DNA of 64,000 nucleotides from the NCBI GenBank assembly GCA_964344965.1, contig CAYFPJ010000001.1, positions 86,771 to 150,770 on the forward strand, read 5' to 3'. The translations under genes were made by a program, and so were the position numbers. Numbering within the stretch: position 1 is the stretch's first letter; the number at the start of each line of letters is the position of its first letter. The notes below the pieces were generated by a model. That model had not been told where the DNA came from, ran no database searches, and saw only the letters and a program-made list of their open reading frames with translations. Source of the DNA: an uncultured Gammaproteobacteria bacterium. GTDB taxonomy: Bacteria > Patescibacteriota > Patescibacteriia > Magasanikbacterales > UBA922. Of the stretch, positions 6,057 to 46,899 are shown one piece after another.

Positions 6057-6059
6057 AAA

Positions 6060-7001
6060 CTATAGATCATTCACCGATTTCACACTCTCATTGTTATGAA
6101 TTCTCTTGATCACTTCGGCAAATCTACTGGTGACAGATACTATCTCTGTGTCTCGCAGATTATGTCTGGCAATCGGAATGGTGTCTGTGGTGAGGAATTT
6201 TCTAATTGGTGAAGCATTCAATTTTTCTCCTGCCCCTTCACCAAGGTTGGCATGGATAAAGCAGGCATCAACACTCTTTGCTCCTGCTGTTTCTAATAAA
6301 TATTTAGCATCTTCGATTAAAGTCCCGCCACTGAGAGTCTCATCGTCTATGATGAGACATTTTTTTCCTTTCACATCACCAAGGACGCTTTTTATTTTTA
6401 CTTTTTCATCATTCCCAACTCTTCTTTTGTCCATCATGGCTATTGGTAGATGCAGGCTGTCAGCGTAGGGCTCTACTAGCTTGGCAGCTCCACTATCTCC
6501 AGCCACCAAGATATAGTTTTCCATATTACTATTTTCTTTTATATATTTCGTAATGTCTGGGGCGGCAATCAGATGGTCGCAAGGGATATTGAAGAAACCA
6601 TGGAGCTGAGGAGAATGCATCTCCATAATGATAACTCGATTGGCTCCAGCAGTCTGGAGCATGTCAGCCATTAGTTTGCCAGTGATACAGATTCTGGGCT
6701 GATCCTTCTTGTCTGATCTTGAGTAAGGGAAGTAGGGGAGGACAGCTGTGATTCTCTTGGCTGAAGCATCACGAAGCGTACGGATATAGATAAGAAGTTC
6801 CATGATATGGGCGTCGACTGGAGGAGTGTGAGATTGAATGACAAATACATCATCGCCGCGCACTGGTTCATCTACTGTGATGAATCTGTTTTCATTACTG
6901 AAGGTGAAAGATGTGGTCTTAGTTTCTTCTATGCCAAGATGCTCGCATATTTTTTTGGTGAATTGTTTGTGACTTGATCCTCCTATGATTTTGAGTGACA
7001 T
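6060..7001 (-). CDS. prs: ribose-phosphate pyrophosphokinase (PRPP synthetase)
   Basis: 313 aa with a PRTase-type fold and an N-terminus MSLKIIGGSSHKQF that matches the Prs family. Confidence 0.88.
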   Translation of the reverse strand: MSLKIIGGSSHKQFTKKICEHLGIEETKTTSFTFSNENRFITVDEPVRGDDVFVIQSHTPPVDAHIMELLIYIRTLRDASAKRITAVLPYFPYSRSDKKDQPRICITGKLMADMLQTAGANRVIIMEMHSPQLHGFFNIPCDHLIAAPDITKYIKENSNMENYILVAGDSGAAKLVEPYADSLHLPIAMMDKRRVGNDEKVKIKSVLGDVKGKKCLIIDDETLSGGTLIEDAKYLLETAGAKSVDACFIHANLGEGAGEKLNASPIRKFLTTDTIPIARHNLRDTEIVSVTSRFAEVIKRIHNNESVKSVNDL

Positions 7002-7018: not shown

Positions 7019-8929
7019 TTAGACTTTCTTTTTTTTATTTCTTTTACGCCCGCTTTCATACCGTTCAATTATGGCTTCTTCTAGTTCTTGGTCAATCGTG
7101 ATTTGAGATCCTAGTTTTTCATGATCACCCCAAAAATGGAGGACCCATTCTGGATTTTCTTCCACCAACTCTTTCAAACACCGGCGAGGAGCTCTGGGAT
7201 CTATATTATATTTAGGACCCAAACTCCCAACAAATACTTTTTTATTTATGATTTCCTGAAAATATTCTAGATCTTCTATTAGTGTTTTGTTGATGCATAG
7301 GCGAATTCTGAAGTCACCTTTCATACGAAATTCTCTTAAGAGCGGAACATCTATTGGTAGTCCATAACCAAAATCACCTGCTCGTTCTGCTAGTATTCTC
7401 CTTTTTTTCATAATTTGCAAACAGGCTTTTTTAACACTAGGGACAGCTCTCTGTTCAGAGGTAGAGGATGTTTTCCTAACAAAATGACTTAATGGTGTAT
7501 AAGCATCTGTGATTTCAGGATAAGTCTGGTGTATGTAGGACTTTACTTCGAGGATTAGTTTTTCGGAATAGATGATAGTGTTGTGTCCGATAGTTTTTAT
7601 ATTTTCTGACCTTTTTGCCTCACTATATAATTTTGTTGCAACTTGATTTGCCAGCCTCTTGAACAGACTTCTATCTACACCAATTTCTTTTGCGGCCAAG
7701 CTCTCTTTTTGAAATCCTGGGTGTGACAGCTCTAGAGCCGACTCTACCCCATCAGGCAATTTTCTTGGAAATCTAGCTTGGATATCCTTTATTTCTTCAC
7801 CCAATGTAGATTCTGTCGGATTATTTTTATAGACATACTTTAGTAATTCATAGACACCTATATACGATATATCTAAGTGTCTACTAATTTTAAGTCGGGC
7901 AGTGTTGGTCTTGTATACTCCGTATTCGTGTAGATCCACCATCTGTTCACTTGTTTGAAGTGCTGTGTATAGATTATTACACAGTCGGAGGTCAGTTATT
8001 GGTGGCACTAAATGACTATCATATGGGATGTTGTCACCTTCTGCAAAATCAGGTATTTTTTCTTCTGTTTCAAAATTGACAGCCATCACAACAGTATTTC
8101 CTAGAGCTTCAAGAGGTGTTCTGTGACTTTTATTTGCATATATATCTTGCAGTCCATATGTCCCGCGAGCTTCTTGACGTTCTGTTTTATCTAGTTTGGC
8201 TAGATTTTTCCAATCATCCGGATGAGAGAGTCGATGGGCTACAATAGTTGCTAGCCCAACTTGATCAGATACAAAGATTGCTTTATAACGTCTTTCGTCA
8301 TGTTGGTCCGCTATGAGAAAGACAGTATACTCGTGTGTTCGCATAGTCTCACGACCAAGCTCTCGATTGAGTTCATCCACAGACTTTCCGTGCCTGTCTA
8401 CAAAGGTAATTCCGTTATCACTCAATGCTTTTTCTACGGCTTCTGTCTTTTTGAGTTCTCTGAATAACTCTTTTCCTCTTTTGCCTTCAGCTTTTGAAGA
8501 TGGGCCTGACCCGTTTTTAGTATCTGGTGGGAAGATAAAAAAATCAACATCATCAGACTCTTCTGGCGTCAATAGTTCGAACTGGTCAAGTTTTTTTTCT
8601 ACCAGGGTTTCGAAGTAAATTTTTATCTCTCGTTCATCAATTGTGGGTATCTGTTGATCTCCGTCTTCTGCAGTTTCTGACATGAATGTAGTGATATCTT
8701 GTTCTGTCACTGGGTAGATGCCATCTTCATACAGATCCATAAAATCAAAGGCGAAGCGTACTGCGTCAACAAGTGATATCTGATTACCTTGACTCCTAAT
8801 AATCAAGTGAAACTGTTCACTCATCTGGCTTGATAGTCTCCTGATTGTTTCTGTTCTTAATTTTTCTCTGTCTGCAGGACGTTTTTCATCAGGGATAGGA
8901 CGATGTGCTGCTTCTTGTCTGGTTGTCAT
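7019..8929 (-). CDS. hypothetical protein (636 aa), function unknown
   Basis: Long uninterrupted ORF with plausible codon usage and no motif I can assign with confidence. Confidence 0.5.
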   Translation of the reverse strand: MTTRQEAAHRPIPDEKRPADREKLRTETIRRLSSQMSEQFHLIIRSQGNQISLVDAVRFAFDFMDLYEDGIYPVTEQDITTFMSETAEDGDQQIPTIDEREIKIYFETLVEKKLDQFELLTPEESDDVDFFIFPPDTKNGSGPSSKAEGKRGKELFRELKKTEAVEKALSDNGITFVDRHGKSVDELNRELGRETMRTHEYTVFLIADQHDERRYKAIFVSDQVGLATIVAHRLSHPDDWKNLAKLDKTERQEARGTYGLQDIYANKSHRTPLEALGNTVVMAVNFETEEKIPDFAEGDNIPYDSHLVPPITDLRLCNNLYTALQTSEQMVDLHEYGVYKTNTARLKISRHLDISYIGVYELLKYVYKNNPTESTLGEEIKDIQARFPRKLPDGVESALELSHPGFQKESLAAKEIGVDRSLFKRLANQVATKLYSEAKRSENIKTIGHNTIIYSEKLILEVKSYIHQTYPEITDAYTPLSHFVRKTSSTSEQRAVPSVKKACLQIMKKRRILAERAGDFGYGLPIDVPLLREFRMKGDFRIRLCINKTLIEDLEYFQEIINKKVFVGSLGPKYNIDPRAPRRCLKELVEENPEWVLHFWGDHEKLGSQITIDQELEEAIIERYESGRKRNKKKKV

Positions 8930-8946: not shown

Positions 8947-10161
8947 TTAATTATAGATATGGTTGGGATTTGATAAGTTAGTCTTGATAGAACGCATAAT
9001 TAAGACATCTATTAGTATAGCAGAAGCCATGATGGCTAGTACAATCTGGAAGGCTGTGCTCGATATACTAGGCACAAAGAAAAATAATCCATAACCGACC
9101 ACTCGACTGGCAAAGACATAAATCCATTCTCTGATAACAATATATTCTACACGGTGATTTTTGTAATCTGGAATTTGGTGAAGCAAATTGTCGCGGTATG
9201 TTTTGGCTGGAATTTGAAGAAGTGGTAAGAAAATTTCTCGAGCAAATCCATAAAAGATATAAGTAAATAGAATGGGGAAGCCAACGAGAGTCATGGTAGC
9301 AATAAAAAATAATGAGCCACCAATAGTAAGAATAAATCTATACTTAGAATAAGGGACTTTTTTCCCAAGGAAAAGAACTACAATTATTCCAAAGAGAGAA
9401 AACAAGGAAAGCAGTCCTCCCAAATGTAGCTCACTATTTATAATATCAAAAATAAATACTGGCAATAGTCTTTCGATAGCACCTTTGTATCCAATGTTCC
9501 CAAAAAATCTGGCTAAGATTAGTTTTACGATATCTTTTTTTTGCCAGATTAATTTTAATGTTTTTCTATAATGGAGAGGAGGGGATTTGTGATTTTCAAC
9601 TTTTACAAATCCGATGAAGATTGAAAAAATATAAACTATGATGCTGATGATAAAAATATTACCATAACCAAGATTTAAAAAATTCAGTCCAATCGCTGCC
9701 CCTCCCAAGATAGGGGCAAAGATGGAGATACTAGTAGTGAGGGCTTGCATGGTCCCGTTGAAATTGCCACGGTTTTTGGTGTGAGTAGTTTCAAATTGAA
9801 GAAACAAGTAGCTAATCCAGTACATACCATTGAAAAATCCAATCATAGATCCTGTCAGAATAAGATGATTAGCCACATAGTCTTTTAGAATAAATAGAAT
9901 GAGATAAATAATTGAAGAACCAATAAGACTAAGTACTCTTGGGGTGTGGTGTTTGCCTTTTTTTACAACACTAGCAAAAAGGGTAAATGAAATGATGTGA
10001 GCCGTAATAAGAGCAATCGAATAAATAGCCAGAGATCTGAGTGAATTGGTTTCACCCCACAGAAAGACAACGAAAAATATATTGAAAATGGAGCGACCAA
10101 ACATTGCTAGAGAGTGCGATACAATCAGCCTTTGGACATTTTTACTGAGATTGTTATTCAT
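8947..10161 (-). CDS. polytopic membrane transporter, MFS-like
   Basis: 404 aa with about 12 hydrophobic segments. Confidence 0.5.
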   Translation of the reverse strand: MNNNLSKNVQRLIVSHSLAMFGRSIFNIFFVVFLWGETNSLRSLAIYSIALITAHIISFTLFASVVKKGKHHTPRVLSLIGSSIIYLILFILKDYVANHLILTGSMIGFFNGMYWISYLFLQFETTHTKNRGNFNGTMQALTTSISIFAPILGGAAIGLNFLNLGYGNIFIISIIVYIFSIFIGFVKVENHKSPPLHYRKTLKLIWQKKDIVKLILARFFGNIGYKGAIERLLPVFIFDIINSELHLGGLLSLFSLFGIIVVLFLGKKVPYSKYRFILTIGGSLFFIATMTLVGFPILFTYIFYGFAREIFLPLLQIPAKTYRDNLLHQIPDYKNHRVEYIVIREWIYVFASRVVGYGLFFFVPSISSTAFQIVLAIMASAILIDVLIMRSIKTNLSNPNHIYN

Positions 10162-12759: not shown

Positions 12760-12840
12760 CATGCTGAGTAACCCCTCCGCCCTTCCACCTTCGCTAAAAC
12801 TACGGCAGACAGGGCGGGCATCTCCCCTTATAAAGGGGAG
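12760..12840. repeat. GC-rich nested hairpins (CCACCTTCGCTAAAACTACGG motif; TCCCCTT ataaa GGGGAGGA)
   Basis: Read directly. A related motif, CCACCTTCGCTAAGGCTACGGTGG, occurs at 20197-20220. Confidence 0.4.
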
Positions 12841-13819: not shown

Positions 13820-14830
13820 TTATTTACTCAGCTCCATCATGCGATCCAAAGCCAATTTTGCTTTTTGTAGAATTTCATCAGGAATATCAACAATTTGTTT
13901 TTTGTGAGGATTTTTCAGAGCCATTAGGACTTGCCCGAGATTAATCTGCTTCATGAAGGGGCAGAGCTGACAAGTGCCAACTATTTGCTTGTTTGGGAAT
14001 TCTGTCTTTACTCTATCAGTGATCCCACATTCGGTGATGAGCATGTAGTTGTCAGCTGGATTTTCTTTTACATATTTGAGCATGTCAGCTGTACTTCCGA
14101 CGAGATCTACAGCGTCAGTGACTGATGAAGTACACTCATAGTGAGCTAAGATGTGAGTTCCAGGATATTTCGTTCGTATATCATCTATGGCTTGCTTGTC
14201 AAAGCGTTCATGCACAATGCAAGTCCCATGCCAGAGGATTAATTTCTTCTTGGTTCTCTTTTGTAGATTTTCTCCCATCAGTTTGTCGGGAATGAAGATC
14301 ACTTCGTCTTCTTCAAATGATTCAATAATTTTGAGAGCATTGGAGCTGGTACAACAGACATCACTTTCAGCTTTCACTTCTGCGCTAGTGTTGACATAGG
14401 TCACTACTGGTACGCCTGGATATTTCTTTTTCAATTCTCTTACATTTTCAGCAGTAATACTCTCAGCTAGAGAACAGCCAGCGACGTCTGGGACTAGGAC
14501 TTCTTTTTCCGGACTAAGTATCTTGGCAGTTTCTCCCATGAAGTGTACCGAGCAAAAGATTATTTTTTTAGCGCTGTGTTCGGCGGCAATCTTGCTGAGA
14601 CCATAAGAATCTCCCACAAAATCAGCAATACCATACATGATATCTGGAGTTTGGTAAGAGTGGGCGAGAATGATAGCGTCTTGCTCTTTTTTGAGCTCAT
14701 TAATTTCCAGGGTCATGTGGGCTATCAAACCACAGTCTTCGAGAGACCAGTTGACGTTTTTTAGTTTTTCGTATAGTCGATTGGTTTCTGCTTTGATTTT
14801 TTCTGGTGAATATTTCATAATTTCTGTCAT
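13820..14830 (-). CDS. nadA: quinolinate synthase
   Basis: 336 aa with the cysteine-containing motifs of the NadA family. Confidence 0.88.
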   Translation of the reverse strand: MTEIMKYSPEKIKAETNRLYEKLKNVNWSLEDCGLIAHMTLEINELKKEQDAIILAHSYQTPDIMYGIADFVGDSYGLSKIAAEHSAKKIIFCSVHFMGETAKILSPEKEVLVPDVAGCSLAESITAENVRELKKKYPGVPVVTYVNTSAEVKAESDVCCTSSNALKIIESFEEDEVIFIPDKLMGENLQKRTKKKLILWHGTCIVHERFDKQAIDDIRTKYPGTHILAHYECTSSVTDAVDLVGSTADMLKYVKENPADNYMLITECGITDRVKTEFPNKQIVGTCQLCPFMKQINLGQVLMALKNPHKKQIVDIPDEILQKAKLALDRMMELSK

Positions 14831-14907
14831 TCTGAACGAAGTGAAGAATCTTTCTTAAGTTGTTTTTTATTTGTAAATAATATAGTGGTTTAAAAGGTTC
14901 TTGGTAG

Positions 14908-14936
14908 AAAAGATCCTTCGCTACGCTCAGGATGAC
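14908..14936. repeat. family B half element (AGATCCTTCGCTACGCTCAGGATGAC)
   Basis: A single arm of the family B palindrome. Confidence 0.5.
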
Positions 14937-15403
14937 AATTCTAGGCTATTCTTTTTAGTCCATGGTGCATGTTGTTGCCATAATGAGTTATTATTTTTTA
15001 TCATCTTACGCAGTTCTGTTCCAGAAATATTAATATTAATCTTAATCTTTTTTACATTATATCCTTTTTCTTCAAACAAACCCGCTACCCATTCATTACC
15101 AGTATAGACTACATCAAAACTTCCAACGATCTTCACCACATGGTCGATCCAATTTTTTTCGTCATGAATATCTGGAATGGCAAGTATTTTGTAATTTAAA
15201 TTTTGATCTTGAAGAGATTTTTCAATCATTTCTTTTCTTTCTTCAAAAGTCCAGGGATTTTCATCAGTATCGCTATACTGTGAACTACCAACTCCAATAA
15301 TTATTTCGTCTTCTGAAATTTGTTTCAAGGCATCGAGGTGGCCGAGATGGAAGGGTTGGAAGCGGCCGATGAAGAGGACTTTTTGCATAGACACAGATTG
15401 CAC
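14927..15403 (-). CDS. nicotinamide/nicotinate mononucleotide adenylyltransferase, archaeal NadM-like
   Basis: 158 aa with a FIGRFQPFHLGH nucleotidyltransferase motif; it sits inside the NAD biosynthesis operon. Confidence 0.75.
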   Translation of the reverse strand: MQSVSMQKVLFIGRFQPFHLGHLDALKQISEDEIIIGVGSSQYSDTDENPWTFEERKEMIEKSLQDQNLNYKILAIPDIHDEKNWIDHVVKIVGSFDVVYTGNEWVAGLFEEKGYNVKKIKININISGTELRKMIKNNNSLWQQHAPWTKKNSLELSS

Positions 15404-16159: not shown

Positions 16160-16250
16160 ATATTATGATATTCTTCCTTATTCTAGCAGAATTTGAGAAT
16201 TTTTCCAGTGTTGAGGATAAATGATCAAAATATATTGACATATATATATA

Positions 16251-16279
16251 TTGACATATTCTCCAAAATGCTATATAAT
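16251..16279 (+). promoter_or_regulatory. sigma70 promoter TTGACA-17-TATAAT for tRNA-Glu
   Basis: ttgaca at 16251-16256, a 17-nt spacer and tataat at 16274-16279. A second ttgaca lies at 16235-16240. Confidence 0.6.
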
Positions 16280-16307
16280 TTTTCCGTCTTAGTCAATTAC
16301 TGACTAT

Positions 16308-16379
16308 GGCCCCATCGTCTAGTGGTTAGGACACCAGGTTTTCATCCTGGGAACAGGGGTTCGATTCCCCTTGGGGCTA
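16308..16379 (+). tRNA. tRNA-Glu (anticodon UUC)
   Basis: Cloverleaf folded by hand: acceptor GGCCCCA / TGGGGCT, anticodon stem CCAGG / CCTGG with loop TTTTCAT, T-arm GGGG TTCGATT CCCC. The 5' end resembles E. coli tRNA-Glu. Confidence 0.85.
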
Positions 16380-16496
16380 CGAAACACAAAGAGGTCTTGC
16401 CAAAACAAGATTTTTTTGTTTTCATTAAGCTAAAACTATAGAGTTCCATTTTTTGTAATGGAATTTTTTTAAAAGGGCAACATAAAACGATTCTTA

Positions 16497-16532
16497 CGCC
16501 CAACTTAGCAAAATACAGGGTTCGATTCCCCT
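16497..16532 (+). pseudogene. chimeric tRNA remnant (5' part like tRNA-Thr GCCAACTTAGC, T-arm like tRNA-Glu CAGGGTTCGATTCCCCT)
   Basis: Read directly; it cannot fold into a complete cloverleaf. Confidence 0.45.
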
Positions 16533-16545
16533 AAACTTTTTTTCT

Positions 16546-18696
16546 ATGTCTTTTCTGAATAGAGAACAACGTATTGATTTGTTTATGTCTCTTTTTACCG
16601 GACGTGAAGACGTGTATGCCTACCGTTGGGAAAGTAGGGGCGGAAAGAAAGGGTATGCTCCCGCGTACGCAGATAGTAACAAAAAACAATATATCCCTTT
16701 CACTAAAAATGTTGTAGAGCAACACCTCTTGGGGAATCAAACAATTGGGGTATACCCATTTCTCACATATAATACATCTAGATTTGTCGTAGCGGATTTT
16801 GATACACCGGACTGTCTGAATTTGCTAAAAAGACTGATAGAAGTATGTAGAGAACGTGGAATAGAGACTTACATTGAGCGATCTCAGTCAGGTAGCGGAT
16901 TTCACGCGTGGTGGTTTTTTGAACAAGCGTATCCTGCATACAAATCACGAAAGATATTTCTTACCCTTCTCAAAAATGCAGGAATCATAGATCAATTTGA
17001 TAAAACGGAAAGTTTTGATCGATTATTTCCCAACCAAGATTATCTTTCAGGTAAAGGGTTGGGTAATTTGATTGCTCTGCCATTGCAAGGTAGCTCAAGA
17101 AAAAGAGGTGCCACTGTATTTCTCGACCCTGAGAATGATTTTCGAGTAGCCAAAGATCAATGGGGATTGCTCCAAGGGATAAAACGCATATCTATGGAGA
17201 CATTGGATAAACTATTTGAGATATCCACACAAAATAGGGATTATTTCATTGAGAATGACACAACAATGTTAGACGCAGATACCGGAAGTGTCCCAATTAC
17301 AATATCGACTCATATTGTTATTCCTAAAAAAGCTGTATCAAAAAATTTTGCGAATTTTCTTTCAGATCATTTACATTTTTTCAATACAGAATACGCGGTC
17401 AAACAAAAGATGGGGCTGTCGACGCATAATACGGAACGATTCTTCAATACAATTGAAAAGTCTGATGAACATATTTTCCTCCCAAGAGGTTTCTTCTCAA
17501 AATTTACTTCTTTTCTTGGAGAAAATAATATCCCGTACACTATTCGTGATGCGAGAATAGAATTTGATTCTCCGACAAAGGTTTCATTATCGTGTCCTCT
17601 CTTTGTATATCAAGAGAAAGCAGTACATGCTTGCCTTTCACAAGATACAGGTATTCTTGTTGCCCCTCCGGGATCTGGAAAGACAATCATGGGTTTGTCT
17701 CTCGTCGCAGCCAGGAAACAACCGAGCTTGATTATCACTCACAGAAAACAAATTTATGAGCAATGGTTAGAACGTATCGAACAATTCATGGGAATATCTA
17801 AAAAGAACATTGGACAAATCACATCTACAAAGAAGGTTATACGATCTCCAATTACTGTCGCTACGATTCAGACACTTGCTCGGATGGTAGATACGATAAA
17901 AGACGAGATGGCCACACATTTTGGATGTATTATTGTTGATGAATGCCATCATATCCCTGCAAAAATGTTCAGACGTGTCATTACCCAGCTCAGCCCGAAA
18001 TATCTCTATGGACTTACCGCAACACCAATGCGCAAACATAATGACGAAAGACTAATGTTTTTGTATCTAGGAGAAAACATATATGAAGTCTCAAAGGAGG
18101 ATATAAAACAAAATAGCTCCAAAGATTCATCTGATGTGAAAATTTATGTTCAAGAAACTGAATTATCTTTTCCATTTACCGTTCACACGAGAAATTATCA
18201 GACTGTGTCAAAAATGCTTATTGCCGATACCAAGAGAAATGAACAAATCATTGCCGACGTGACTTCGGAAATTGAACAAGGTAAGAAGTGTTTGTTGCTC
18301 ACAGAACGGAAGGAACACGTAAAGATATTCCAGCTGTATCTTGGTAAAAAATATGAAACCATCACGCTCACCGGTGGAGAAAGGATTATGAAGAGAAAAC
18401 AGAAGATTGAACAGATCAAAAGTGGTCATTTTCAGGTGATTATTGCGACCGGACAGTACATAGGAGAGGGTATGCATTTTGACGATCTGGATTCGTTGTT
18501 TCTGGTATATCCGTGTTCATTTAGTGGAAAATTGACGCAATATATTGGCAGAGTATTACACAGCGATAATAGTTCAAAGAATGTATATGATTATAGAGAC
18601 AGCGACATTCCTTATTTCGAGAGGATGTTCAAAAAGAGGAAAAAATATTATGAAAAAGAGTATGGAGGTAATAGTAATATGAGAACATTGCTATGA
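16546..18696 (+). CDS. PrimPol (archaeo-eukaryotic-type primase-polymerase) domain fused to an SF2 DEAD/DEAH-box helicase
   Basis: N-terminal PrimPol motifs VVADFDTPD (DxD) and SQSGSGFHAWWFF. The helicase carries Walker A APPGSGKT, DECHH, TATPMR and a C-terminal QYIGRVLH motif VI. Confidence 0.75.
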   Translation: MSFLNREQRIDLFMSLFTGREDVYAYRWESRGGKKGYAPAYADSNKKQYIPFTKNVVEQHLLGNQTIGVYPFLTYNTSRFVVADFDTPDCLNLLKRLIEVCRERGIETYIERSQSGSGFHAWWFFEQAYPAYKSRKIFLTLLKNAGIIDQFDKTESFDRLFPNQDYLSGKGLGNLIALPLQGSSRKRGATVFLDPENDFRVAKDQWGLLQGIKRISMETLDKLFEISTQNRDYFIENDTTMLDADTGSVPITISTHIVIPKKAVSKNFANFLSDHLHFFNTEYAVKQKMGLSTHNTERFFNTIEKSDEHIFLPRGFFSKFTSFLGENNIPYTIRDARIEFDSPTKVSLSCPLFVYQEKAVHACLSQDTGILVAPPGSGKTIMGLSLVAARKQPSLIITHRKQIYEQWLERIEQFMGISKKNIGQITSTKKVIRSPITVATIQTLARMVDTIKDEMATHFGCIIVDECHHIPAKMFRRVITQLSPKYLYGLTATPMRKHNDERLMFLYLGENIYEVSKEDIKQNSSKDSSDVKIYVQETELSFPFTVHTRNYQTVSKMLIADTKRNEQIIADVTSEIEQGKKCLLLTERKEHVKIFQLYLGKKYETITLTGGERIMKRKQKIEQIKSGHFQVIIATGQYIGEGMHFDDLDSLFLVYPCSFSGKLTQYIGRVLHSDNSSKNVYDYRDSDIPYFERMFKKRKKYYEKEYGGNSNMRTLL

Positions 18697-18770
18697 TCGG
18701 CTTGTCATTTTTTTCAGATATCCACAGTGATATATCACATTTTTTTTAATTTTGTGATATATTTACAGGG

Positions 18771-19901
18771 ATGTATCATATTCTGCTATATATCAAATAT
18801 ATGCCAAAAACATTCAATCCAACAACTCCATATACACCTCCCACGCTTCCTCCCAAAGATATCAAGGCAATTGAGGCAGCATTAAGCGAACAGATCATGG
18901 AGGCGCGTATAGCCCTCGCTGAACTCAAAGGGTTTAGTGTGGCTGTGCCCAACCCATTATTACTTTTGTCTCCCGCCATCTTGCGTGAATCATTGGCCAG
19001 TTCTGAAATTGAGAATATTCACACAACGTTGATTGATGTCTTGGAAAACCAGTTGTTTCCTGAACGGGAGCAGCGAGAAAAAGACAAAGAAGTTTTGCGT
19101 TATCGTGATGCTATTCTTTGGGGCTTCGAACAAGTAGAAAAATTGGCTGTCTCAACCAGATTGATTCATGGAGTGCATCACAAATTGATGCCTACCATAC
19201 ACAGAGGTTATCGCTCACAGCAAAATACTATTGCTGATGGAGCAGGTCGAGCAATATATACCCCACCTACTGTACCCGTAATGAAAGAGTGTATGAGCGC
19301 ATGGGAAACGTTTGTGAATGATGACAAGCAATCAGTTGATCCTTTGGTAAAAGCCATTCTTGGGCATTATCAATTTGAATCAATCCATCCGTTTCCTGAT
19401 GGAAATGGCAGAACAGGACGTATTTTAATGATTTTAGAATTGATCCAAGATCGAATTCTTATCTGGCCAATTTTGTATATCAGCGGCTACATCAACACGC
19501 ATAAGAGGGAGTATTACTCGTCCCTTATCAATGTAACTAAGAAAAATGACTGGATAAGCTATATTCGTTTTATGTTGGTTGGATTTGCTGACCAAGCAAA
19601 AGAAACCAAAGATGTATTGCAATCTATTATGACGCTCTTTGATGCGTACAAAAAAGAATTAAAGGAAAAGAAAACACGGGTGTATTCCGCTGATTTGGTA
19701 GAGTCGCTATTTACATATCCAATTATCACCCCCACAAAATTGAGTGAGTCTCTCAATATCCATTATACTACTGCCACGAGACATCTTGAGGTACTCAAGA
19801 AGTTAACACTCTTGGAGGAGAAGAAAGTTGGAAAGTACCGATTTTTTATCAATGTCAAATTACTTGAGGTATTATCCCCGAAGAAAGCAAAGAAGAATTG
19901 A
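18771..19901 (+). CDS. Fic/Doc family protein (putative AMP-transferase) with N-terminal inhibitory SxxxEN motif
   Basis: Canonical Fic motif HPFPDGNGRTGR. SSEIEN matches the [ST]xxxE[GN] inhibitory helix of class II Fic proteins. The C-terminus is wHTH-like. Confidence 0.8.
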   Translation: MYHILLYIKYMPKTFNPTTPYTPPTLPPKDIKAIEAALSEQIMEARIALAELKGFSVAVPNPLLLLSPAILRESLASSEIENIHTTLIDVLENQLFPEREQREKDKEVLRYRDAILWGFEQVEKLAVSTRLIHGVHHKLMPTIHRGYRSQQNTIADGAGRAIYTPPTVPVMKECMSAWETFVNDDKQSVDPLVKAILGHYQFESIHPFPDGNGRTGRILMILELIQDRILIWPILYISGYINTHKREYYSSLINVTKKNDWISYIRFMLVGFADQAKETKDVLQSIMTLFDAYKKELKEKKTRVYSADLVESLFTYPIITPTKLSESLNIHYTTATRHLEVLKKLTLLEEKKVGKYRFFINVKLLEVLSPKKAKKN

Positions 19902-20079
19902 TATTTTTTGAAAAAACACGTACACGTATTTCCATTCCAGATCATTCATCTAACCAAACCCGGAAGATAAAAATTGGCTCCACAGCCGCATTTCTTCCAC
20001 AAAAAGGTTCCAATGGTCAGTGGAGTGGTCTACACGGTAGACACCAATGTATGATGTACTTTAAGTGTATTTGAGAACA

Positions 20080-20107
20080 GAAGGGTTCTCCGCCCAAGGC
20101 GGACCCG
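20080..20107. terminator. GC-rich hairpin CCGCCCAAGGCGG acc CGCCTTGGGCGG abutting the att-like repeat
   Basis: The arms are a perfect reverse complement. Confidence 0.4.
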
Positions 20108-20126
20108 CCTTGGGCGGGGATTCCCC
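20106..20126 (+). repeat. direct repeat of the tRNA-Glu 3' end (putative attR)
   Basis: GGGGATTCCCCTTGGGGCTAC versus tRNA 3' GGGGTTCGATTCCCCTTGGGGCTAC; it differs only by a 4-nt deletion. Confidence 0.6.
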
Positions 20127-20139
20127 TTGGGGCTACTAG

Positions 20140-20442
20140 CTTGCTTGCTTGCTTGACAAATCTATTATAGAATGGTATTATCAAGCTCACCATAGACAGC
20201 AGCCCACCTTCGCTAAGGCTACGGTGGATAAGGCTCGATCCAATCGATGCCAAGTCCCATCTAGACCGAAAGGTGATAATATACCAGACTGCCGAGGTTA
20301 TTTACTCCGAATTTTCCAAATTTTTATAATTTGGTGATCGTAGAGAGGTCGAAAATAACAAGAAGTTCTGTGGTCAAACCACAGTTTTTTATTTTATAGC
20401 AATTGTCTATGAACTATTGGCTAAGAACTAAATAAATAAATT
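20140..20442 (+). promoter_or_regulatory. probable ribosomal protein L10 (rplJ) autoregulatory leader
   Basis: A roughly 300-nt structured untranslated region directly upstream of rplJ. The position is conserved for the L10 leader, but the motif itself could not be verified. Confidence 0.35.
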
Positions 20443-20964
20443 ATGGCCAAAACAAAACAAACCAAAGAGCAGGCTGTCCAAGATTTGATCGCTCATCTCA
20501 AGGATTCCAAAGCTGCTGTGTTTGCCAATTTCCAGGGCTTGAAAGTGTCTGAATCAGAAGAGCTACGCGGCATTTGTCGTGAACAAAACGTCAAATATAT
20601 CGCCAGTAAGAAAACTCTCCTGAAAAAGGCTCTCTCAGAATTAGGAATGGAAGTGGATACTAAAGCATTTGAAGGAGCTCCAGCTGTAGTCCTCGGAGTA
20701 GAGGATGAAGTAGCTCCAGCTCAGATCATTGCCAAGTTTGCTAAGGATCACGAGATGGTCAACATCTTTGGCGGAATACTAGAAGGCAATTTGATAGATG
20801 ATGCAAAAGTAAAAGAACTATCTGCTCTACCAAGTAAGCAAGAGCTGCTAGCAAAAGTAGTTGGCTCATTGAACGCTCCAGTCTCTGGATTTGTCAATGT
20901 ACTTGCTGGAAATTTGCGTGGATTAGTTAATGTCCTTAATGCAATTAAAGAAGAAAAAGCTTAA
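20443..20964 (+). CDS. rplJ: 50S ribosomal protein L10
   Basis: 173 aa, with MAKTKQTKEQAVQDLIAHLKDSKAAVFANFQGLKV typical of L10. Confidence 0.9.
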   Translation: MAKTKQTKEQAVQDLIAHLKDSKAAVFANFQGLKVSESEELRGICREQNVKYIASKKTLLKKALSELGMEVDTKAFEGAPAVVLGVEDEVAPAQIIAKFAKDHEMVNIFGGILEGNLIDDAKVKELSALPSKQELLAKVVGSLNAPVSGFVNVLAGNLRGLVNVLNAIKEEKA

Positions 20965-21178
20965 AATGCCACAAAAGCCCGAAAGGCTTGAAAGGTTAAT
21001 GCTTATTAAAAAATTTTAATAAAAAAATATGACAGAAGAAAAAAAAGAGGAGGAAAAAAAGGAAGAAGCTGCAGCTCCGGCTGCTGAAGCAGAAAAACCT
21101 GCTGCTGAGGAAAAGGCAGAAGACAAGGAAGTGGAAGTACCAGCTAAATTTAAGTCTCTTGTAGAAGAGGTTGAAAAA

Positions 21179-21520
21179 ATGTCTGTACTTGATCTAGCTG
21201 AACTAGTGAAGATCTTGGAAGACAAATTTGGTGTATCAGCTGCTGCTCCTGCCATGATGATGGCTGGCACTGCTGCTGGTGGAGACGCTGGAGCTGGAGC
21301 AGAAGAAAAGACAGAATTCACTGTTGAGCTTACTGATGCTGGTAGCAGCAAGATCGCTGTCATCAAAGCTGTCAAAGCAGCTACCGGTCTAGGTTTGGCT
21401 GATGCCAAAGCTCTAGTAGATGGTGCTCCAAAAGCAATTAAAGAAAATGTAGCCAAAGCTGAAGCCGAGGAGCTCAAGAAGCAAATCGAAGAAGCTGGTG
21501 GTAAAGTTGAATTGAAATAA
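21179..21520 (+). CDS. rplL: 50S ribosomal protein L7/L12
   Basis: [19 protein letters not shown] dimerisation domain, an Ala-rich hinge and a conserved CTD. A GAGG SD lies 8 nt before the ATG at 21179. The longer ORF from 21029 would add a KE-rich extension with no SD. Confidence 0.8.
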
Positions 21521-21604: not shown

Positions 21605-21685
21605 TGTCATCCTGAGCGCAGCGAAGGATCTTTCTTGTAGAGGACTTCTTCCTTACTAAAGATCCTTCGCTGCGCTCAGGATGAC
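21605..21685. repeat. family B palindromic element, full copy
   Basis: GTCATCCTGAGCGCAGCGAAGGATCTTT ... AAAGATCCTTCGCTGCGCTCAGGATGAC. Confidence 0.7.
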
Positions 21686-21696
21686 ATACGATTTAT

Positions 21697-23943
21697 TTAT
21701 ATTCCAAAAGAGTATATTTTGTTACTATCTAGAATATAGATAGTACCCCCTGCTTCATCCACTATCATTCCGGTCGGATTTTGCCATTCCTCGGCAGTGT
21801 ACTGATTTAGTAGCTTTCCTTCTTTATTTAGTACTACTACACGTTTTCCAGATGGCTCAAGGATATAAATATTTTCGACATCATTGTATGTCCAGAGTAT
21901 AGTTGGGTTGGCAAGTTTTGGGTCTAGTCCTGTGATATTGAATTCTTCTTTTTCTCCACTCACAAATTTGAAAATTTCTCCATCGGCTTTCAAAACAAAG
22001 ATGTCACCATCAACCGCCAGGGAAGTGGCGTCGCTTACGTCCGCCCCTTCTGTCTTTATCCATGAGCTACCTTTGTCATAACCAGTCTTAGTTTTGTTGT
22101 GTTTATATATCTGATTGCCGTCTCTGTCTACTGCGTATAGGCGTAAATTGTACACAAATATATCAGCAATATCCACCTTTTCACTGGGATAGTTTATGTC
22201 ATTCTTTGATAATGTTTTTGTCTCTTTGTTGTAGTCAGAAACGTGTTGACTGTCTGATAAAAACACTATCTTGTCTTGTTCTTTTGGAGTGGATGCTGAT
22301 GCTATGTTTGGTATTATGTCGTGGGAGTGAACTTCACTATTTTGGGTGTCAAGATCAAAATTGTAAAATGATTTATCGTCTGGTCCATAGGCGATCAGAG
22401 TATTGTCGATTCTGGCTATTTTTTGTATGTTTGCTTCAGGGTATTGACTCTGTAGATTTGCCAACAACTTGGGGGACACCACCTCAATATTTCTAAGCTT
22501 AAGGAGGCTTTCTTCAACTAGACTAGAGAATTGTAAGGCAATTTCCTCAGTATTTTTCTTGTTGTCCGGTATTGTGTCAATTAACTTTTGTGCCTCCCTG
22601 AGTAGCGTCAAAGCCTTGCTGCTGTCATTGTATATCATGCTTGCATCAGCTGCTGATATCTTATCTTCAATGGCCTGAATATGATTGATGTAAGCTTGTT
22701 CTCTTATTTTGTTTTCTTCTTTTATTTTTATCCCAGTGATGCTGACAACAAACAGCATGGCCGCCAATATCGTACCAATTAGTAATATTTTACTAAAAAA
22801 AGGTAGATTTTTTAGGTACTGCCCAATATTGTGACCTGTGTTTTTGAATGACTGAATGGACTCCTTTCTACTATTATTTTTATTAGTAATTAGAATAAAA
22901 AGCATGATAAATATTTTTCCAATTACAATTGCTATTTTTTTTATTATATTTATCAAGCCTATACAGCTTTGTACTAAGGCTCTACCTACGCTTACTAGGA
23001 TTGTGCTTTTTAAGGACTGTATTTCTTCGTCTCGTCTTGGTCTATAATTACTTTCTTTTATATTATCTCTGACTATCCTTCTCCTTTTTTTTGAAGATTT
23101 TTTTGAAGAAGATTTTTGTTTTTTGTCTTTTTTTATTTTCTTTTTTAGACTGCCAAATAGGGGAGGGGAAAGAGTCTCAGCTGTATCTCTCTCTGATTGG
23201 AGTAGCTGATCAAGGGATTCGGCTGAGCTTTGATCTGTTCTGCTTGAAAGTGAGTTGTTGGTTGTTTGCAATCCTTCTTTTTGTGCCAAATATTTGCATA
23301 AGATACCTCCAAAAGAAGATTTGTCATGGAGATTTCTCAGGACTTTTTCTATGTGAGATACGCTTTGTTGGATATTTCTAGACCCAATTATTTTTTGGAG
23401 TCTGTCGTATGAAAAGTGGTCGGCAACCTGAGGGGTCATGAGAAATATTTTGTCCTCTGGGTTTATGTTTCCTTCAATTACAGAAGAAAATAGTGTGGCA
23501 CCATCCTCCTCATCAGTGTGCTCATCCAAAATATTGAAAGTATTTGTGTGGTTTTTTTGTTTATAAAATAATATGGCATGAGGGGTACCATGATAACTTA
23601 TTGATATGTTGTCTTTTTTTACCACTGCAACTAGACAGTGGATGGAAACTTTTTTGTCGAGAATTCCTGAATTTTTACGATTGATATACTCTAAGGTCAG
23701 CTCAAATGGACTTTTTTCTCCGTCTTGGTTTGCTGTATCATAGTACCCAGCTTCTATATCATCAATGATTTCTTGCATTTGCTCTATGTGCTCTATTGAT
23801 CCATTATTGATTTCACAAAGTGCCAAAAAATATCCCTTCTCAGACTCTTCTTCTGTCGAGGGTTCTGTAATGTGGAGGAGGACATGTGAGGATTTCTGGT
23901 CATTTCCTTCAACAAAAAATTCTCGTATATCTACGTTATGCAT
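21697..23943 (-). CDS. hypothetical membrane protein: N-terminal degenerate PP2C/SpoIIE-like domain, TM segment, KR-rich linker, C-terminal beta-propeller-like repeats
   Basis: 748-aa ORF. The N-terminus loosely resembles the PPM fold (IHCLVAVV...LMTPQV) but lacks DGHGG. There is one hydrophobic stretch near residue 380. Confidence 0.45.
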   Translation of the reverse strand: MHNVDIREFFVEGNDQKSSHVLLHITEPSTEEESEKGYFLALCEINNGSIEHIEQMQEIIDDIEAGYYDTANQDGEKSPFELTLEYINRKNSGILDKKVSIHCLVAVVKKDNISISYHGTPHAILFYKQKNHTNTFNILDEHTDEEDGATLFSSVIEGNINPEDKIFLMTPQVADHFSYDRLQKIIGSRNIQQSVSHIEKVLRNLHDKSSFGGILCKYLAQKEGLQTTNNSLSSRTDQSSAESLDQLLQSERDTAETLSPPLFGSLKKKIKKDKKQKSSSKKSSKKRRRIVRDNIKESNYRPRRDEEIQSLKSTILVSVGRALVQSCIGLINIIKKIAIVIGKIFIMLFILITNKNNSRKESIQSFKNTGHNIGQYLKNLPFFSKILLIGTILAAMLFVVSITGIKIKEENKIREQAYINHIQAIEDKISAADASMIYNDSSKALTLLREAQKLIDTIPDNKKNTEEIALQFSSLVEESLLKLRNIEVVSPKLLANLQSQYPEANIQKIARIDNTLIAYGPDDKSFYNFDLDTQNSEVHSHDIIPNIASASTPKEQDKIVFLSDSQHVSDYNKETKTLSKNDINYPSEKVDIADIFVYNLRLYAVDRDGNQIYKHNKTKTGYDKGSSWIKTEGADVSDATSLAVDGDIFVLKADGEIFKFVSGEKEEFNITGLDPKLANPTILWTYNDVENIYILEPSGKRVVVLNKEGKLLNQYTAEEWQNPTGMIVDEAGGTIYILDSNKIYSFGI

Positions 23944-24690: not shown

Positions 24691-24860
24691 ATAATTTACA
24701 ATTTATAATTTTCAATTTAAAAACAATTTTTAATTTATAAATTTATAATGTTACAAATTTGTCGCTCACTTCGACGAGTTATGTTTTGTGGGTTTTATAA
24801 ATTTAAAATTGAGTCATTAGAAATTGTTTAAAAATTTCAAATTGAAAATTATAAATTTTT
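24691..24860. repeat. family F AT-rich MITE-like element (TIR AATTTACAATTTGAAATTTTTAAACAATTT / AAATTGTTTAAAAATTTCAAATTG...)
   Basis: About 30-bp terminal inverted repeats. Copies lie at 26918-27080, 32616-32776 and 46978-47260. Confidence 0.65.
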
Positions 24861-26641: not shown

Positions 26642-26917
26642 ATGAACAACCTCCACCTCACTATCCACGGCCAAGTCCAAGGAGTTTTCTTTCGTCAGAC
26701 AGCTTGTGAAAAGGCAAGTGAGCTTGGCCTGACTGGCTGGGTAAAAAATAATCCAGACGGAACAGTGGAGATCGTGGCTGAAGGCAGGGAGCAAGACTTG
26801 AAAAAATTGTTGGAATGGTGTAAAGAAGGACCGGAGTATGCTCATGTTGAGAGGGTTGTGGAGGAGTGGCGAGATGTGGAGGAGAGGAAGTTTGAGGAGT
26901 TTAGAGTAATGTATTAA
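26642..26917 (+). CDS. acyP: acylphosphatase
   Basis: VQGVFFR...GWVKNNPDGTVEIVAEG signature; 91 aa. Confidence 0.85.
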   Translation: MNNLHLTIHGQVQGVFFRQTACEKASELGLTGWVKNNPDGTVEIVAEGREQDLKKLLEWCKEGPEYAHVERVVEEWRDVEERKFEEFRVMY

Positions 26918-27080
26918 TTTGAAATTTACAATTTGAAATTTTTAAACAATTTTTAATTTATAAATTTATAATGTCACAAATTCACTTTTCACTCCGAAGA
27001 GTTATGTTTTGCAGGTTTTATTAATTTAAAATTCAGTCATTAGAAATTGTTTAAAAATTAAAAATTTCAAATTAAAAATT
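26918..27080. repeat. family F MITE-like element
   Basis: Same TIRs and core (TTATAAATTTATAATGTCACAAATT ... AGTCATTAGAAATTGTTTAAAAATT) as the copy at 24691. Confidence 0.65.
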
Positions 27081-28710: not shown

Positions 28711-30198
28711 ATGTTTTTTAGAAGAAAGAAAAAATCTAGTATTTGGAAATGGCTGTTTGGTTCTTGTTTAATTGTGGTTATTTCTTTTGCAATTTTTAGT
28801 TACTATGCCTTGCGTGATTTTGATTTGGCCACTGTGATTGATAATGATTTTGTAGAAGAGGTAATTCGGGCTGAGCTAAGTGAAGACCAAGGTGAAATTT
28901 TGGATATATTGCCGATAGTTTTGGGATTTACAGAGCCCAAGACTTACTTATTCCTTTTCCAAAACAACACAGAATTAAGACCAGGTGGAGGGTTTATTGG
29001 TGTCTATGCAGTTGTGGAAGTGGATAGAGGAAGTATGGAAATTGTTGAAGTTGAGGGGAGTGGAATTTTGGACAAAAGAGCTTCAAAAGATCTTTTACAG
29101 CCCCCACCTGAACCAGTCGGAGAATATCTGGGTGTCGACAGGTGGTATTTCCGTGACAGTAATTGGTCTCCAGACTTCGAAGAAAGTGCCAAAAAAGCTC
29201 TTGAGTTTTATAAAATTGAAGATGGGGTGAAAGCAAATGAAATTGATGTTGTGGTCGGAATTACCCCAACAGTTTTAGAAAGATTAATGAAAATTACAGG
29301 TGACTTCACTATTGAAGGTGTAGATTTTACTACTGAAAGTGTGACAGAGACTCTAGAATACGAAGTAGAATATGGTTATAAAGAAAAAGGAATTGTTTTT
29401 GAGGAGAGAAAAGCTATCATAAGACCATTTATGGAGGCACTTGTGAAAAGAGTGAAAGACACTTTGTTTGAAAATTATGAAAAATATTTTGATACCTTAC
29501 TAGATCTTGCTCATGAAAAACATTTGGTTTTCTTTTCCAAGACAGATGATCTCCAATTTTTGTTAGATCAGTTTGATTTGTCTGCAAACGTATTTGATAC
29601 AGAGGGCGATTATTTACTTTGGGTAGATGCCAATCTTGGTGCTTTAAAAACTGATCATGCTATGGACAGAACTTTGGACTATACTCTGTCCAAGCGTCCA
29701 GCTGCTCATGAGAGTGAATCAGATCGCTATCTTGCTTCGGCTACTATGGAATATGATCATCAGGGTACTTTTGATTGGCGGACTAGTCGCTATCTGACCT
29801 ATGCCAGAGTCTATGTGCCAAAAGGTTCAAAGCTGGTGTCTGTAGTTGGTAAAAAGAAAAATGGACAAGATATAAAATTGGAAGAAGTGGATAGCGGTGA
29901 AGAGCTTGGCAAACAATGGTTTGGGACTTATTTTTCAGTTGAGCCAGGTAACAAAAAATTATTATCATTTATTTATCAGTTACCATCAAATATAAAAGAA
30001 AATATTGATAGTAATAACTATAATTTAACCATTCAAAAACAACTTGGCACGGTTGATCACAGATTGACGCTCCACCTTGATTTTGGTAAGCTTATTCAGT
30101 CTGCAAATCCGGCTGAGTCAGAAGAAAAATGGGGCGATACTACTTATGAATACGAAGGTGACCTGAGGTTGGATCGGGAGTTTAATATTTCATTCTGA
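28711..30198 (+). CDS. DUF4012-like membrane-anchored protein
   Basis: N-terminal TM, then NTELRPGGGFIGVYAVVEV, which resembles the DUF4012 core. This family is often found beside glycosyltransferases. Start set at the ATG at 28711. Confidence 0.55.
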   Translation: MFFRRKKKSSIWKWLFGSCLIVVISFAIFSYYALRDFDLATVIDNDFVEEVIRAELSEDQGEILDILPIVLGFTEPKTYLFLFQNNTELRPGGGFIGVYAVVEVDRGSMEIVEVEGSGILDKRASKDLLQPPPEPVGEYLGVDRWYFRDSNWSPDFEESAKKALEFYKIEDGVKANEIDVVVGITPTVLERLMKITGDFTIEGVDFTTESVTETLEYEVEYGYKEKGIVFEERKAIIRPFMEALVKRVKDTLFENYEKYFDTLLDLAHEKHLVFFSKTDDLQFLLDQFDLSANVFDTEGDYLLWVDANLGALKTDHAMDRTLDYTLSKRPAAHESESDRYLASATMEYDHQGTFDWRTSRYLTYARVYVPKGSKLVSVVGKKKNGQDIKLEEVDSGEELGKQWFGTYFSVEPGNKKLLSFIYQLPSNIKENIDSNNYNLTIQKQLGTVDHRLTLHLDFGKLIQSANPAESEEKWGDTTYEYEGDLRLDREFNISF

Positions 30199-46830: not shown

Positions 46831-46899
46831 CGCCTACGCTGAAGCTTCGGCGGATAAATGCCGCAATCGTTTTGTTCTTTCAATTATTATACAACACAT

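Follow-up and report, generated by a model that had tools for sequence, protein, structure and literature searches.

How did a primase-helicase gene and a Fic gene come to lie in an uncultured Magasanikbacterium, between its tRNA-Glu gene and the promoter of rplJ, and what might they do there? We analyzed a 64-kb stretch of this genome (hereafter the window), in which the two genes occupy an insertion of 3,756 bp (16381-20136; hereafter the islet). Our preferred reading, to which we assign a probability of roughly 0.7, is that the islet is what remains of an element that integrated site-specifically at the 3' end (T loop) of a tRNA-Glu gene of Candidatus Magasanikbacteria, which belong to the Candidate Phyla Radiation (CPR), and that it holds two intact and most likely independent defence genes. 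An initial annotation had described a tRNA-integrated segment with attL/attR-type ends; the direct repeats at its borders and the empty sites in relatives agree with that description.

The islet is genuinely inserted at the tRNA-Glu 3' end, between direct repeats derived from this tRNA. Its borders are defined by the following features.

16251..16279, forward strand: promoter-like site of tRNA-Glu, TTGACA-17-TATAAT, matching the consensus at 12/12 positions.
16308..16380, forward strand: intact tRNA-Glu(UUC), the left boundary of the islet (attL-type junction), called by ARAGORN (ttc) and Rfam (tRNA, 65.7 bits).
16363..16380, forward strand: left copy of the 18-nt direct repeat GATTCCCCTTGGGGCTAC (3' part of the T loop, 3' strand of the T stem, 3' strand of the acceptor).
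16386-16419, forward strand: first terminator-like hairpin inside the left border.
16444-16470, forward strand: second terminator-like hairpin (TTCCATT/AATGGAA plus T-run), read directly from the sequence.
16515..16532, forward strand: inner T-arm remnant ACAGGGTTCGATTCCCCT, with a 15-nt exact match, found by alignment.
19902..20072, forward strand: non-coding right arm, with small open reading frames (ORFs) that have no Pfam match, and without Rfam match.
20073..20088, forward strand: left piece of the displaced tRNA fragment, GAGAACAGAAGGGTTC (tRNA counterpart GGGAACAGGGGTTC), found by alignment.
20089..20118, no strand: 30-nt GC-rich perfect palindrome within the T loop of the displaced tRNA fragment, with 13-bp arms at 20090-20102 and 20105-20117.
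20119..20136, forward strand: right copy of the 18-nt direct repeat GATTCCCCTTGGGGCTAC, forming the attR-type junction and ending on the last base of the insertion.

The 18-nt repeat is present as two exact copies in the window, and there are still two matches when up to three mismatches are allowed. Its chance expectation is 0.02 per window, and none of 100 dinucleotide-preserving shuffles of the window reached two copies. Similarity to the tRNA also extends further, to about 34 nt of its 3' part, which is split in the T loop between TTC and GATT; GAGAACAGAAGGGTTC corresponds to the variable loop and the 5' half of the T arm. Both observations speak against a chance match, which the initial annotation had entertained. 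That annotation had also reported that the tRNA-Glu 3' end recurs 3.7 kb downstream. This holds as an exact match of 18 nt, but the right copy lacks the 4-nt deletion ascribed to it, and its T loop is interrupted by the palindrome. The palindrome itself accounts for the strong GC hairpin that had been noticed at this border. A tRNA remnant had been placed at 16497-16532. It is found at 16515-16532, where 18/19 tRNA positions are matched with one G missing and no acceptor strand, but alignment detects no tRNA similarity at 16497-16514. The remnant ends 13 nt before the first gene and is possibly the scar of a second event; together with the palindrome, it hints at more than one event. The non-coding 3' stretch has a folding z score of -4.4. 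In a search of 16200-20500 against Rfam with an E-value threshold, only the tRNA and a sub-threshold L10 leader were returned.

Related genomes lack the islet. We compared 80 loci fetched by their L10 protein, one per species, with L10 identities of 54-82%; all are Patescibacteria, chiefly Candidatus Magasanikbacteria. Homologues of the cargo were sought up to 9 kb upstream and 5 kb downstream of rplJ, and neither gene was found near rplJ in any of the 80 genomes (0/80). The possibility, raised initially, that relatives share this gene order without the repeats therefore finds no example among them. In the closest relative (L005, L10 82% identical), the tRNA starts 252 nt ahead of the rplJ start codon, and L009, L027 and L040 are also empty, with tRNA-Glu 308-375 nt ahead of the rplJ start. 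The order in L005 is nadA, nadD and nadE (minus strand), tRNA-Glu, rplJ, rplL, a 748-aa conserved protein and a 198-aa protein, which is the order of the window on both sides of the islet. L040 likewise retains the full nadA-nadD-nadE / tRNA-Glu / rplJ-rplL synteny. Deletion of 16381-20136 in silico brings the window into base-for-base alignment with L005, L009 and L040, in a continuous series of tRNA, a 3-16-nt spacer, a TTGACA/TATAAT-type promoter, the L10 leader blocks and ATG. An equivalent TTGACA/TATAAT is found upstream of tRNA-Glu in relatives. Since tRNA-Glu and rplJ are directly joined in the closest relatives, 16381-20136 is a lineage-specific insertion; the alignment proposed with the initial annotation thus shows an empty junction in four genomes.

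To the right of the islet, the chromosome resumes with the rplJ leader, as had been reported.

20153-20181, forward strand: rplJ promoter, TTGACA-17-TATTAT, an 11/12 match with TG extension.
20172-20400, forward strand: L10 leader with attenuator hairpin at 20368-20384, identified by alignment; Rfam L10_leader scores 27.5 bits, below threshold.

The conserved blocks of the leader are CCATAGACAGCAG ... CTGCCGAGGT ... AGGTCGAA ... CTGTGG-loop-CCACAG-T run. At the homologous place in L006, L007 and L008, the leader scores 48-60 bits, above the Rfam threshold. The low score in the window is probably due to insertion of the hairpin repeat CCACCTTCGCTAAGGCTACGGTGG..., which has three copies in the window (20204-20234, 12785-12815 and 46830-46860), the first of them within the first stem of the leader. 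The proposal that the element has split the usual ribosomal-protein neighbourhood was not borne out. Relatives without the islet have tRNA-Glu and the divergent nadE-nadD-nadA before rplJ, not rplK-rplA, and the islet parts only tRNA-Glu from the rplJ promoter.

The cargo consists of two genes, with a short intergenic region between them.

16546..18696, forward strand: archaeo-eukaryotic primase (AEP) primase-polymerase (residues ~9-225, TOTE/CAPP clade) fused to an XPB-like superfamily 2 (SF2) helicase (residues ~345-680), 716 aa, intact.
18727-18738, forward strand: palindrome GTGATATATCAC, read from the sequence.
18754-18762, forward strand: repeat of GTGATATAT, a half-site of the GTGATATATCAC palindrome, read from the sequence.
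18771..19901, forward strand: class II Fic AMP-transferase of the SoFic family (366 aa from 18801, as in public gene calls), supported by Pfam, PADLOC and PDB.

Matches in Pfam, PADLOC and PDB uphold the first gene call as a primase-polymerase joined to an SF2 helicase. The primase-helicase matches the Pfam families AEP-TOTE (PF22548; 4e-73, 246 bits against a cut-off of 27), ResIII (1.5e-29) and Helicase_C. Its best match in PADLOC is the model of the CRISPR-associated PrimPol (2.9e-61), and its best matches in NCBIfam are CRISPR-associated primase-polymerase and XPB. Among structures, residues 9-225 resemble the CRISPR-associated primase-polymerase (CAPP) 7nqd (6e-16) and residues 350-535 the archaeal XPB 6p4f (4.5e-18). 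We aligned 24 homologues from CPR bacteria and from proteobacterial and actinobacterial plasmids. Invariant positions include the metal ligands D84 and D86, H120, D158 and R159 in the AEP part, and the Walker A residues K379 and T380, D465, E466, H468, H469 and motif VI (Q665, G668, R669) in the helicase. With these catalytic residues invariant, the enzyme looks catalytically complete.

The family to which this protein belongs is very large. A word-indexed protein search for PF22548 primase-helicases returned at least 7,872 significant clusters, mostly of 695-735 aa and many from CPR phyla. The nearest homologue among the matches listed is 66% identical and lies in a different context, and 98 plasmids carry a homologue at ~32% identity. 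No full-length primase-helicase was found in 50,697 phage records, which gave only generic helicase matches covering <60% of the query, and no copies were found in a scan of IMG/VR. A metagenome scan for further copies of the islet returned four distant loci.

The second gene call, 18771/18801-19901, had been annotated as class II Fic, and motifs, Pfam and PADLOC concur. Pfam identifies Fic_N (3e-21), Fic (6e-17) and the C-terminal winged-helix domain SoFic-like_C (6e-13), while PADLOC matches SoFic at 1.6e-102 over 352/361 profile positions. The protein aligns over its full length with the SoFic structures 3eqx/3zcn (~1e-55) and with the 358-aa adenylyltransferase 9vjc (7e-59). Together with the CAPP and XPB matches of the first protein, these alignments to solved structures settle the folds. 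The catalytic motif HxFx(D/E)GNGRxxR is intact in the translation as HPFPDGNGRTGR. Upstream of the Fic core lies SSEIEN, which fits (S/T)xxxE(G/N), the inhibitory motif that defines class II in the established Fic literature. The score against the NCBIfam equivalog for protein adenylyltransferase SoFic is 271 bits, under the cut-off of 550, so the protein is a member of the SoFic family and not a strict orthologue. Weak promoter-like matches occur at 18734-18779, upstream of the gene; 18727-18762 is a possible operator or promoter region of the Fic gene, as judged from its sequence. SoFic has been reported as a standalone Fic-domain defence protein (preprint 10.1101/2022.05.11.491447). In E. 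coli, EcSofic is a toxic AMPylase that is countered by AS1, a 47-aa protein encoded downstream (PMC12249575). Translations of the region downstream of the islet gene and Pfam searches of its small ORFs revealed no convincing counterpart of AS1.

These assignments bear on the initial description of the cargo as an uncharacterised two-gene module. Neither gene fits the adjective: Fic belongs to SoFic, a described single-gene defence family, and the primase-helicase carries the AEP-TOTE domain of a family with at least 7,872 clusters. Nor is an obligate module shown, given the closest SoFic homologue (59% identical), which stands alone among housekeeping genes, between those for aconitase and a metallophosphatase. 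On account of this solitary homologue, we read the two islet genes as most likely acting independently.

To place the primase-helicase in its wider setting, we examined 20 distinct contexts, the window included; this is a small and non-random sample. A Fic-family gene adjoins the primase-helicase in 3/20 of them: the window, the Kaiserbacteria locus L101 and L094. The Fic gene of the window lies downstream with a gap of 74-104 nt. That of L101 lies upstream with a 3-nt gap and encodes a protein of the same overall architecture, 27% identical to the window Fic. AbiEi/AbiEii adjoins the primase-helicase in three contexts and HipA in two. Other immediate neighbours are HigB, PemK, PIN/DUF2281, RelE, an Xre/MbcA antitoxin, NOV_C, RhuM and restriction-modification genes. 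A recombinase is found beside the gene in only one context (1/20), on plasmid L111. This pattern is that of a resident of defence and toxin-antitoxin islands, not of a replicon's replicase. In five to six contexts, a DUF6155-like protein of ~180 aa is encoded directly upstream and often overlaps the start codon of the primase-helicase. Its copies are as follows.

L085 2479-3042 and L097 5450-5995: ~180-aa upstream protein, DUF6155.
L112 2307-2870: ~180-aa upstream protein, weak DUF6155 match.
L111 2331-2876 and L113 2328-2879: ~180-aa upstream protein, assigned by size and position; no family match.

This protein is likely a conserved partner of the primase-helicase. It occurs in CPR bacteria and on proteobacterial plasmids, and the window copy of the primase-helicase is without it.

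Comparison with known systems places the locus more precisely. Like tRNA-anchored genomic and defence islands, the islet is inserted exactly at the 3' end of a tRNA, starting at 16381 and leaving the tRNA complete, has a displaced 3' fragment at the other junction, is absent from relatives and carries defence-type genes. Unlike them, it has neither an integrase nor a remnant of one, spans only 3.8 kb and two genes, shows no compositional contrast and has its displaced tRNA fragment split by a 30-nt palindrome. The Fic protein shares the three-domain architecture and both motifs of SoFic from Shewanella oneidensis and of EcSofic from E. coli. However, it is encoded in a CPR host, falls under the NCBIfam equivalog cut-off, has no convincing AS1 counterpart and is known here from sequence.

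The primase-helicase recalls three further systems. TOTE (TPR, OB, TBP, Effector) is defined by a TPR-cold-shock-domain protein and a TATA-binding-protein homologue, as outlined in the available text of PMC12458937, citing Aravind, Iyer and Burroughs (2022). The strong AEP-TOTE match (246 bits) indicates a shared AEP clade, but no TPR-OB or TBP-like protein is present in the islet, in its neighbours or in the 20 primase-helicase contexts inspected. We therefore rejected the islet as a TOTE system; the primase-helicase fusion is thus also encoded away from canonical TOTE operons. The entire AEP domain shows homology to CAPP (7nqd/7nqf; 6e-16), but in the islet it is fused to an XPB-like helicase. 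Since the window contains no spaced-repeat array and no cas domains were detected among the ORFs tested, a CAPP locus was also rejected. The ICETh2 element of Thermus thermophilus resembles the islet in combining a primase-polymerase and a helicase on acquired DNA, a likeness of activities and not of compared sequences. In ICETh2, however, the two are separate genes on a large integrative and conjugative element. For PrimPol-helicase pairs on acquired DNA, a link to replication and repair has been described (PMC11724360), while the PrimPol of ICETh2 has a reported role in limiting incoming foreign DNA instead of in replicating the element (PMC7693054). A replicative primase-helicase of a mobile element was discarded as a match for the islet protein, given its SF2/XPB-like helicase and the lack of an adjacent recombinase in 19/20 contexts.

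No recombinase was found in the islet, as initially stated: its only ORFs with a family match are the two cargo genes, and the small ORFs of its non-coding ends have no match. Pfam was searched with the ORFs of the islet, including the small ones of its non-coding ends, and with 10 window ORFs that could not otherwise be identified. Tyrosine and serine recombinase motifs were sought by regular expression in all 60 predicted window proteins, and the serine recombinase of L018 served as a tblastn query. None of these searches revealed a recombinase in the 64-kb window; the remaining window proteins were classed as housekeeping by eye from their translations, without profile search.

In relatives, the same tRNA end is accompanied by such enzymes. 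In L018 (1343-7375), tRNA-Glu (7301-7375, minus strand) borders a 5.9-kb island whose other end is marked by a displaced copy of the tRNA 3' end (1427-1444); 84 nt beyond this copy lies a second, degenerate one. Encoded on the island are a MerR/HTH_17-SF2 helicase, a 509-aa protein and a 482-aa large serine recombinase with Resolvase, Recombinase and Zn_ribbon domains. L010 (424-1961) also carries a large serine recombinase directly 3' of tRNA-Glu. The presence of serine recombinases at the same tRNA-Glu end in L018 and L010 adds weight to a decayed element, one of the two forms first proposed for the islet; the other form, a satellite, is kept as a low-ranked alternative. The islet was also considered as a relative of the L018 island, which we rejected, since identity between the helicases is only 24% over 265 aa and reflects a generic relationship within SF2.

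Smaller insertions have occurred at the same place. In L006, L008 and L035, a copy of the genome's own tRNA-Glu 3' end lies 167-176 nt downstream of the original. In L022 (6579-7030), a gene for a 92-aa GIY-YIG nuclease follows directly after tRNA-Glu and is flanked by a ~40-nt repeat of the tRNA 3' part, which looks like a free-standing homing-endonuclease insertion with target duplication.

Several side observations concern non-coding sequences at these sites. A GC-rich element of ~130-150 nt is found in L006 9021-9152 (+), L008 8580-8714 (-), L035 9363-9491 (-) and L018 1427-1576 (-), between a terminator and the displaced 3'-end copy of the tRNA-Glu of the same host. It begins with GGGGAATCGAAC (T-arm antisense), forms two tetraloop hairpins and ends with GCGAGTGAGAT and the tRNA end. 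Compensatory changes are seen in 18/38 predicted pairs across the four sequences. The share of paired cells is 92.8%, compared with 38-60% when partners are slid. The element has no Rfam match and could be a structured RNA or a recombination-site module of an element that targets tRNA-Glu. A covariance model built for it (R1) gave no match in the window or L097 even with filters off, so kinship with the right arm of the islet was rejected; in IMG/VR, it matched hairpin fragments only. Just downstream of the primase-helicase gene of L097, a terminator-bracketed GC-rich segment (8415-8570) with the start GGGAATCGAAC and the tRNA-like 3' end AATTCCCTCTAGCCACCCCA resembles the element of the relatives, yet it is not matched by R1. 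The same architecture is seen at a different tRNA in L075 (2940-3180), where a 16-nt copy of the 3' end of tRNA-Leu(GAG) lies 141 nt downstream with a GC-rich insert between. L007 has a ~450-nt GC-rich, non-coding-looking stretch (9353-9830) between tRNA-Glu and the rplJ promoter, with no Rfam match at E < 0.1. Near-identical palindromes of the form CCGCCnnnGGCGG-NN-CCGCCnnnGGCGG occur in the window (20089-20118), L014 (6442-6469, 190 nt upstream of that genome's tRNA-Glu), L059 (18473-18500) and L022 (10703-10730). These scattered palindromes of Magasanikbacteria may be small mobile palindromic elements or protein-binding sites.

On the preferred reading, of site-specific integration followed by decay, the history of the locus would be as follows. 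An element would have integrated at the T loop of tRNA-Glu, with the incoming DNA supplying a replacement 3' end, such that the tRNA is intact at the left junction. The original 3' part, pushed to the right junction, would be the fragment now lying next to the rplJ promoter. All but two selectively useful genes would then have been lost, the recombinase gene being either deleted or never carried; with that gene gone, the islet is presumably immobile, to judge from the window. If Fic acts like the SoFic proteins characterised so far, it would be an auto-inhibited AMP-transferase that, when released during infection, AMPylates proteins of the cell and aborts the infection. The primase-helicase may use ATP to translocate on foreign or replicating nucleic acid, thereby positioning its primase-polymerase to disturb replication of the invader.

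A number of points weigh against this reading. With no recombinase or remnant in the islet, integrase-mediated entry is inferred from the scar only. The islet has a GC content of 0.36-0.41, within the 0.32-0.43 of its flanks, and thus shows no compositional contrast; a CPR donor would explain this. Immediately ahead of the primase-helicase the search for promoter-like sites gave nothing, and between this gene and the tRNA promoter lie two terminator-like hairpins, so its expression is only presumed. Its proposed defence role is drawn from genomic context and the name of its Pfam family. The adjacency of Fic in 3/20 contexts exceeds that of a random neighbour and argues against full independence of the two genes. 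Finally, short public contigs of the same project, retrieved by exact-protein look-ups with the primase-helicase, L10 and NadE, carry the islet or end inside tRNA-Glu and are uninformative on empty-site variants. The latter assemblies, from the same population, end at window positions 16337-16351 (ends of L096 and L001/L002). Such ends are expected if several co-occurring genomes share the tRNA sequence, and hence provide no evidence of polymorphism.

The last of the points on function leads to an alternative that we regard as unlikely, namely that the two genes form one cooperating conflict system. The primase-helicase would sense or process invading nucleic acid and license a neighbouring toxin, here Fic, in parallel to the variable Effector slot of TOTE or to toxin-antitoxin-linked sensors, and the islet would be a single two-gene cassette. 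Fic-family genes are immediate neighbours in 3/20 contexts, toxins or toxin-antitoxin pairs are the closest genes in most of the others as well, and the DUF6155-like protein overlaps the helicase start codon in five to six contexts, all of which would suit cooperation. Yet the partner is not conserved, varying in type, side and spacing, and the closest SoFic relative (59%) is solitary, in line with the standalone function of SoFic. The Fic gene of the window is also separate from the helicase gene, without overlap, and is preceded by a palindrome and promoter-like region of its own. Moreover, toxin-antitoxin genes are enriched in any defence island, so adjacency in 20 non-randomly chosen contexts is weak evidence of cooperation. 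It is similarly doubtful that the AEP-primase/XPB-like-helicase fusion is the core of undescribed, widespread two-part conflict systems with an interchangeable toxin, of which the islet would be a minimal complete example delivered to the T loop of tRNA-Glu by a serine-recombinase-type element. The candidate toxins of such systems would be Fic (in the window and at least two other lineages), AbiEii, HipA, PemK and the DUF6155-like protein.

Two other alternatives concern the origin of the islet instead of the action of its genes. Replicases of the pRN1 type combine an AEP primase-polymerase with a helicase. Pairs of this kind replicate many integrative plasmids and mobile elements (PMC11724360), which would allow the islet to be a non-autonomous mobile element, that is, an integrative mini-replicon or satellite with the primase-helicase as its replication protein and a recombinase encoded elsewhere or by a helper. 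The att-like repeats and the junction palindrome, as might be found at a recombinase site, are compatible with this, as is the use of the same tRNA by the serine-recombinase islands of relatives, one of which (L018) has an SF2 helicase gene in the same tRNA-proximal position. We nevertheless consider it improbable. The helicase is of the SF2/XPB-like type, not the SF3, DnaB or PriCT-associated type of mobile-element replicases, and that of L018 is too distant (24% over 265 aa). The family is chromosomal or plasmid-borne amid defence and toxin-antitoxin genes, with an adjacent recombinase only in L111 and no copies in phage records or IMG/VR, and the 66% identical nearest homologue in a different context argues against recent spread. 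No recombinase was found in the 64-kb window, and the PrimPol of the Thermus mobile element is dispensable for replication of that element and instead limited foreign DNA uptake (PMC7693054). Far less credible still is that the repeat is a chance match or local duplication flanking two ancestral genes that relatives have lost. The flank-like GC content and the missing recombinase would fit it, but the chance expectation is 0.02 and the similarity extends beyond 18 nt. In addition, 80/80 relatives are without the cargo here, four clean empty junctions match the window minus the islet, and both genes come from patchily distributed, horizontally mobile defence families.

Other repeats and genes in the window were noted in passing. 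A 148-nt direct repeat (99-100% identical) is present at 43243-43389 and 47017-47163, 3,774 bp apart; its second copy begins 41 nt after tRNA-Thr (46900-46975). The repeat comprises the last part of one ORF, a hairpin between genes and the initial 34 nt of the 549-aa ORF. A recent duplication, an artefact of the assembly or a further rearrangement linked to a tRNA may account for it. An intergenic repeat of ~88 nt with the inverted ends TGTCATCCTGAGCGCAGCGAAGGATCTTTC ... AAAGATCCTTCGCTGCGCTCAGGATGACA is found at 5976-6063 and 21605-21692, with partial copies at 14827-14938 and 30190-30217. Lying between convergent genes, it is either similar to repetitive extragenic palindromes or miniature inverted-repeat transposable elements (REP-/MITE-like) or a shared bidirectional terminator. 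A further family of intergenic repeats is AT-rich, with members of up to 166 nt that are 64-86% identical; they stand before several genes and after tRNA-Thr (24692-24857, 26915-27080, 32606-32771 and 46977-47027). The 748-aa protein (21697-23943, reverse strand) has no Pfam domain and is a clade-wide gene product, encoded beside rplL in most of the 80 relatives at 23-48% identity. The mechanically called rplL ORF (21029-21520, 163 aa) aligns with relatives over its last 123 aa only; its start was probably called too early, the true one lying near 21149.

Patescibacteria have tiny genomes and mostly lack CRISPR. In other bacteria, tRNA-anchored islets that have lost their integrase and kept a defence cargo are well known. 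The present islet is thus an ordinary kind of genomic feature, and both of its genes come from described families. Genomic islands and an enrichment of horizontally acquired defence genes have been reported for Patescibacteria (PMC12455944). What is new here is a base-resolved example of such an islet in a CPR genome, the position of its junction in the T loop and the observation that a very abundant primase-helicase family keeps company with toxins. The locus combines a precise T-loop insertion point with sister genomes in which the site is empty and with two defence-type genes that, as we read it, stayed intact after the mobility gene was lost. For Magasanikbacteria, it identifies tRNA-Glu as a recurrent landing site. 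For the AEP-TOTE primase-helicase family, alone or with a SoFic toxin, the islet provides a compact natural construct of 3.8 kb.

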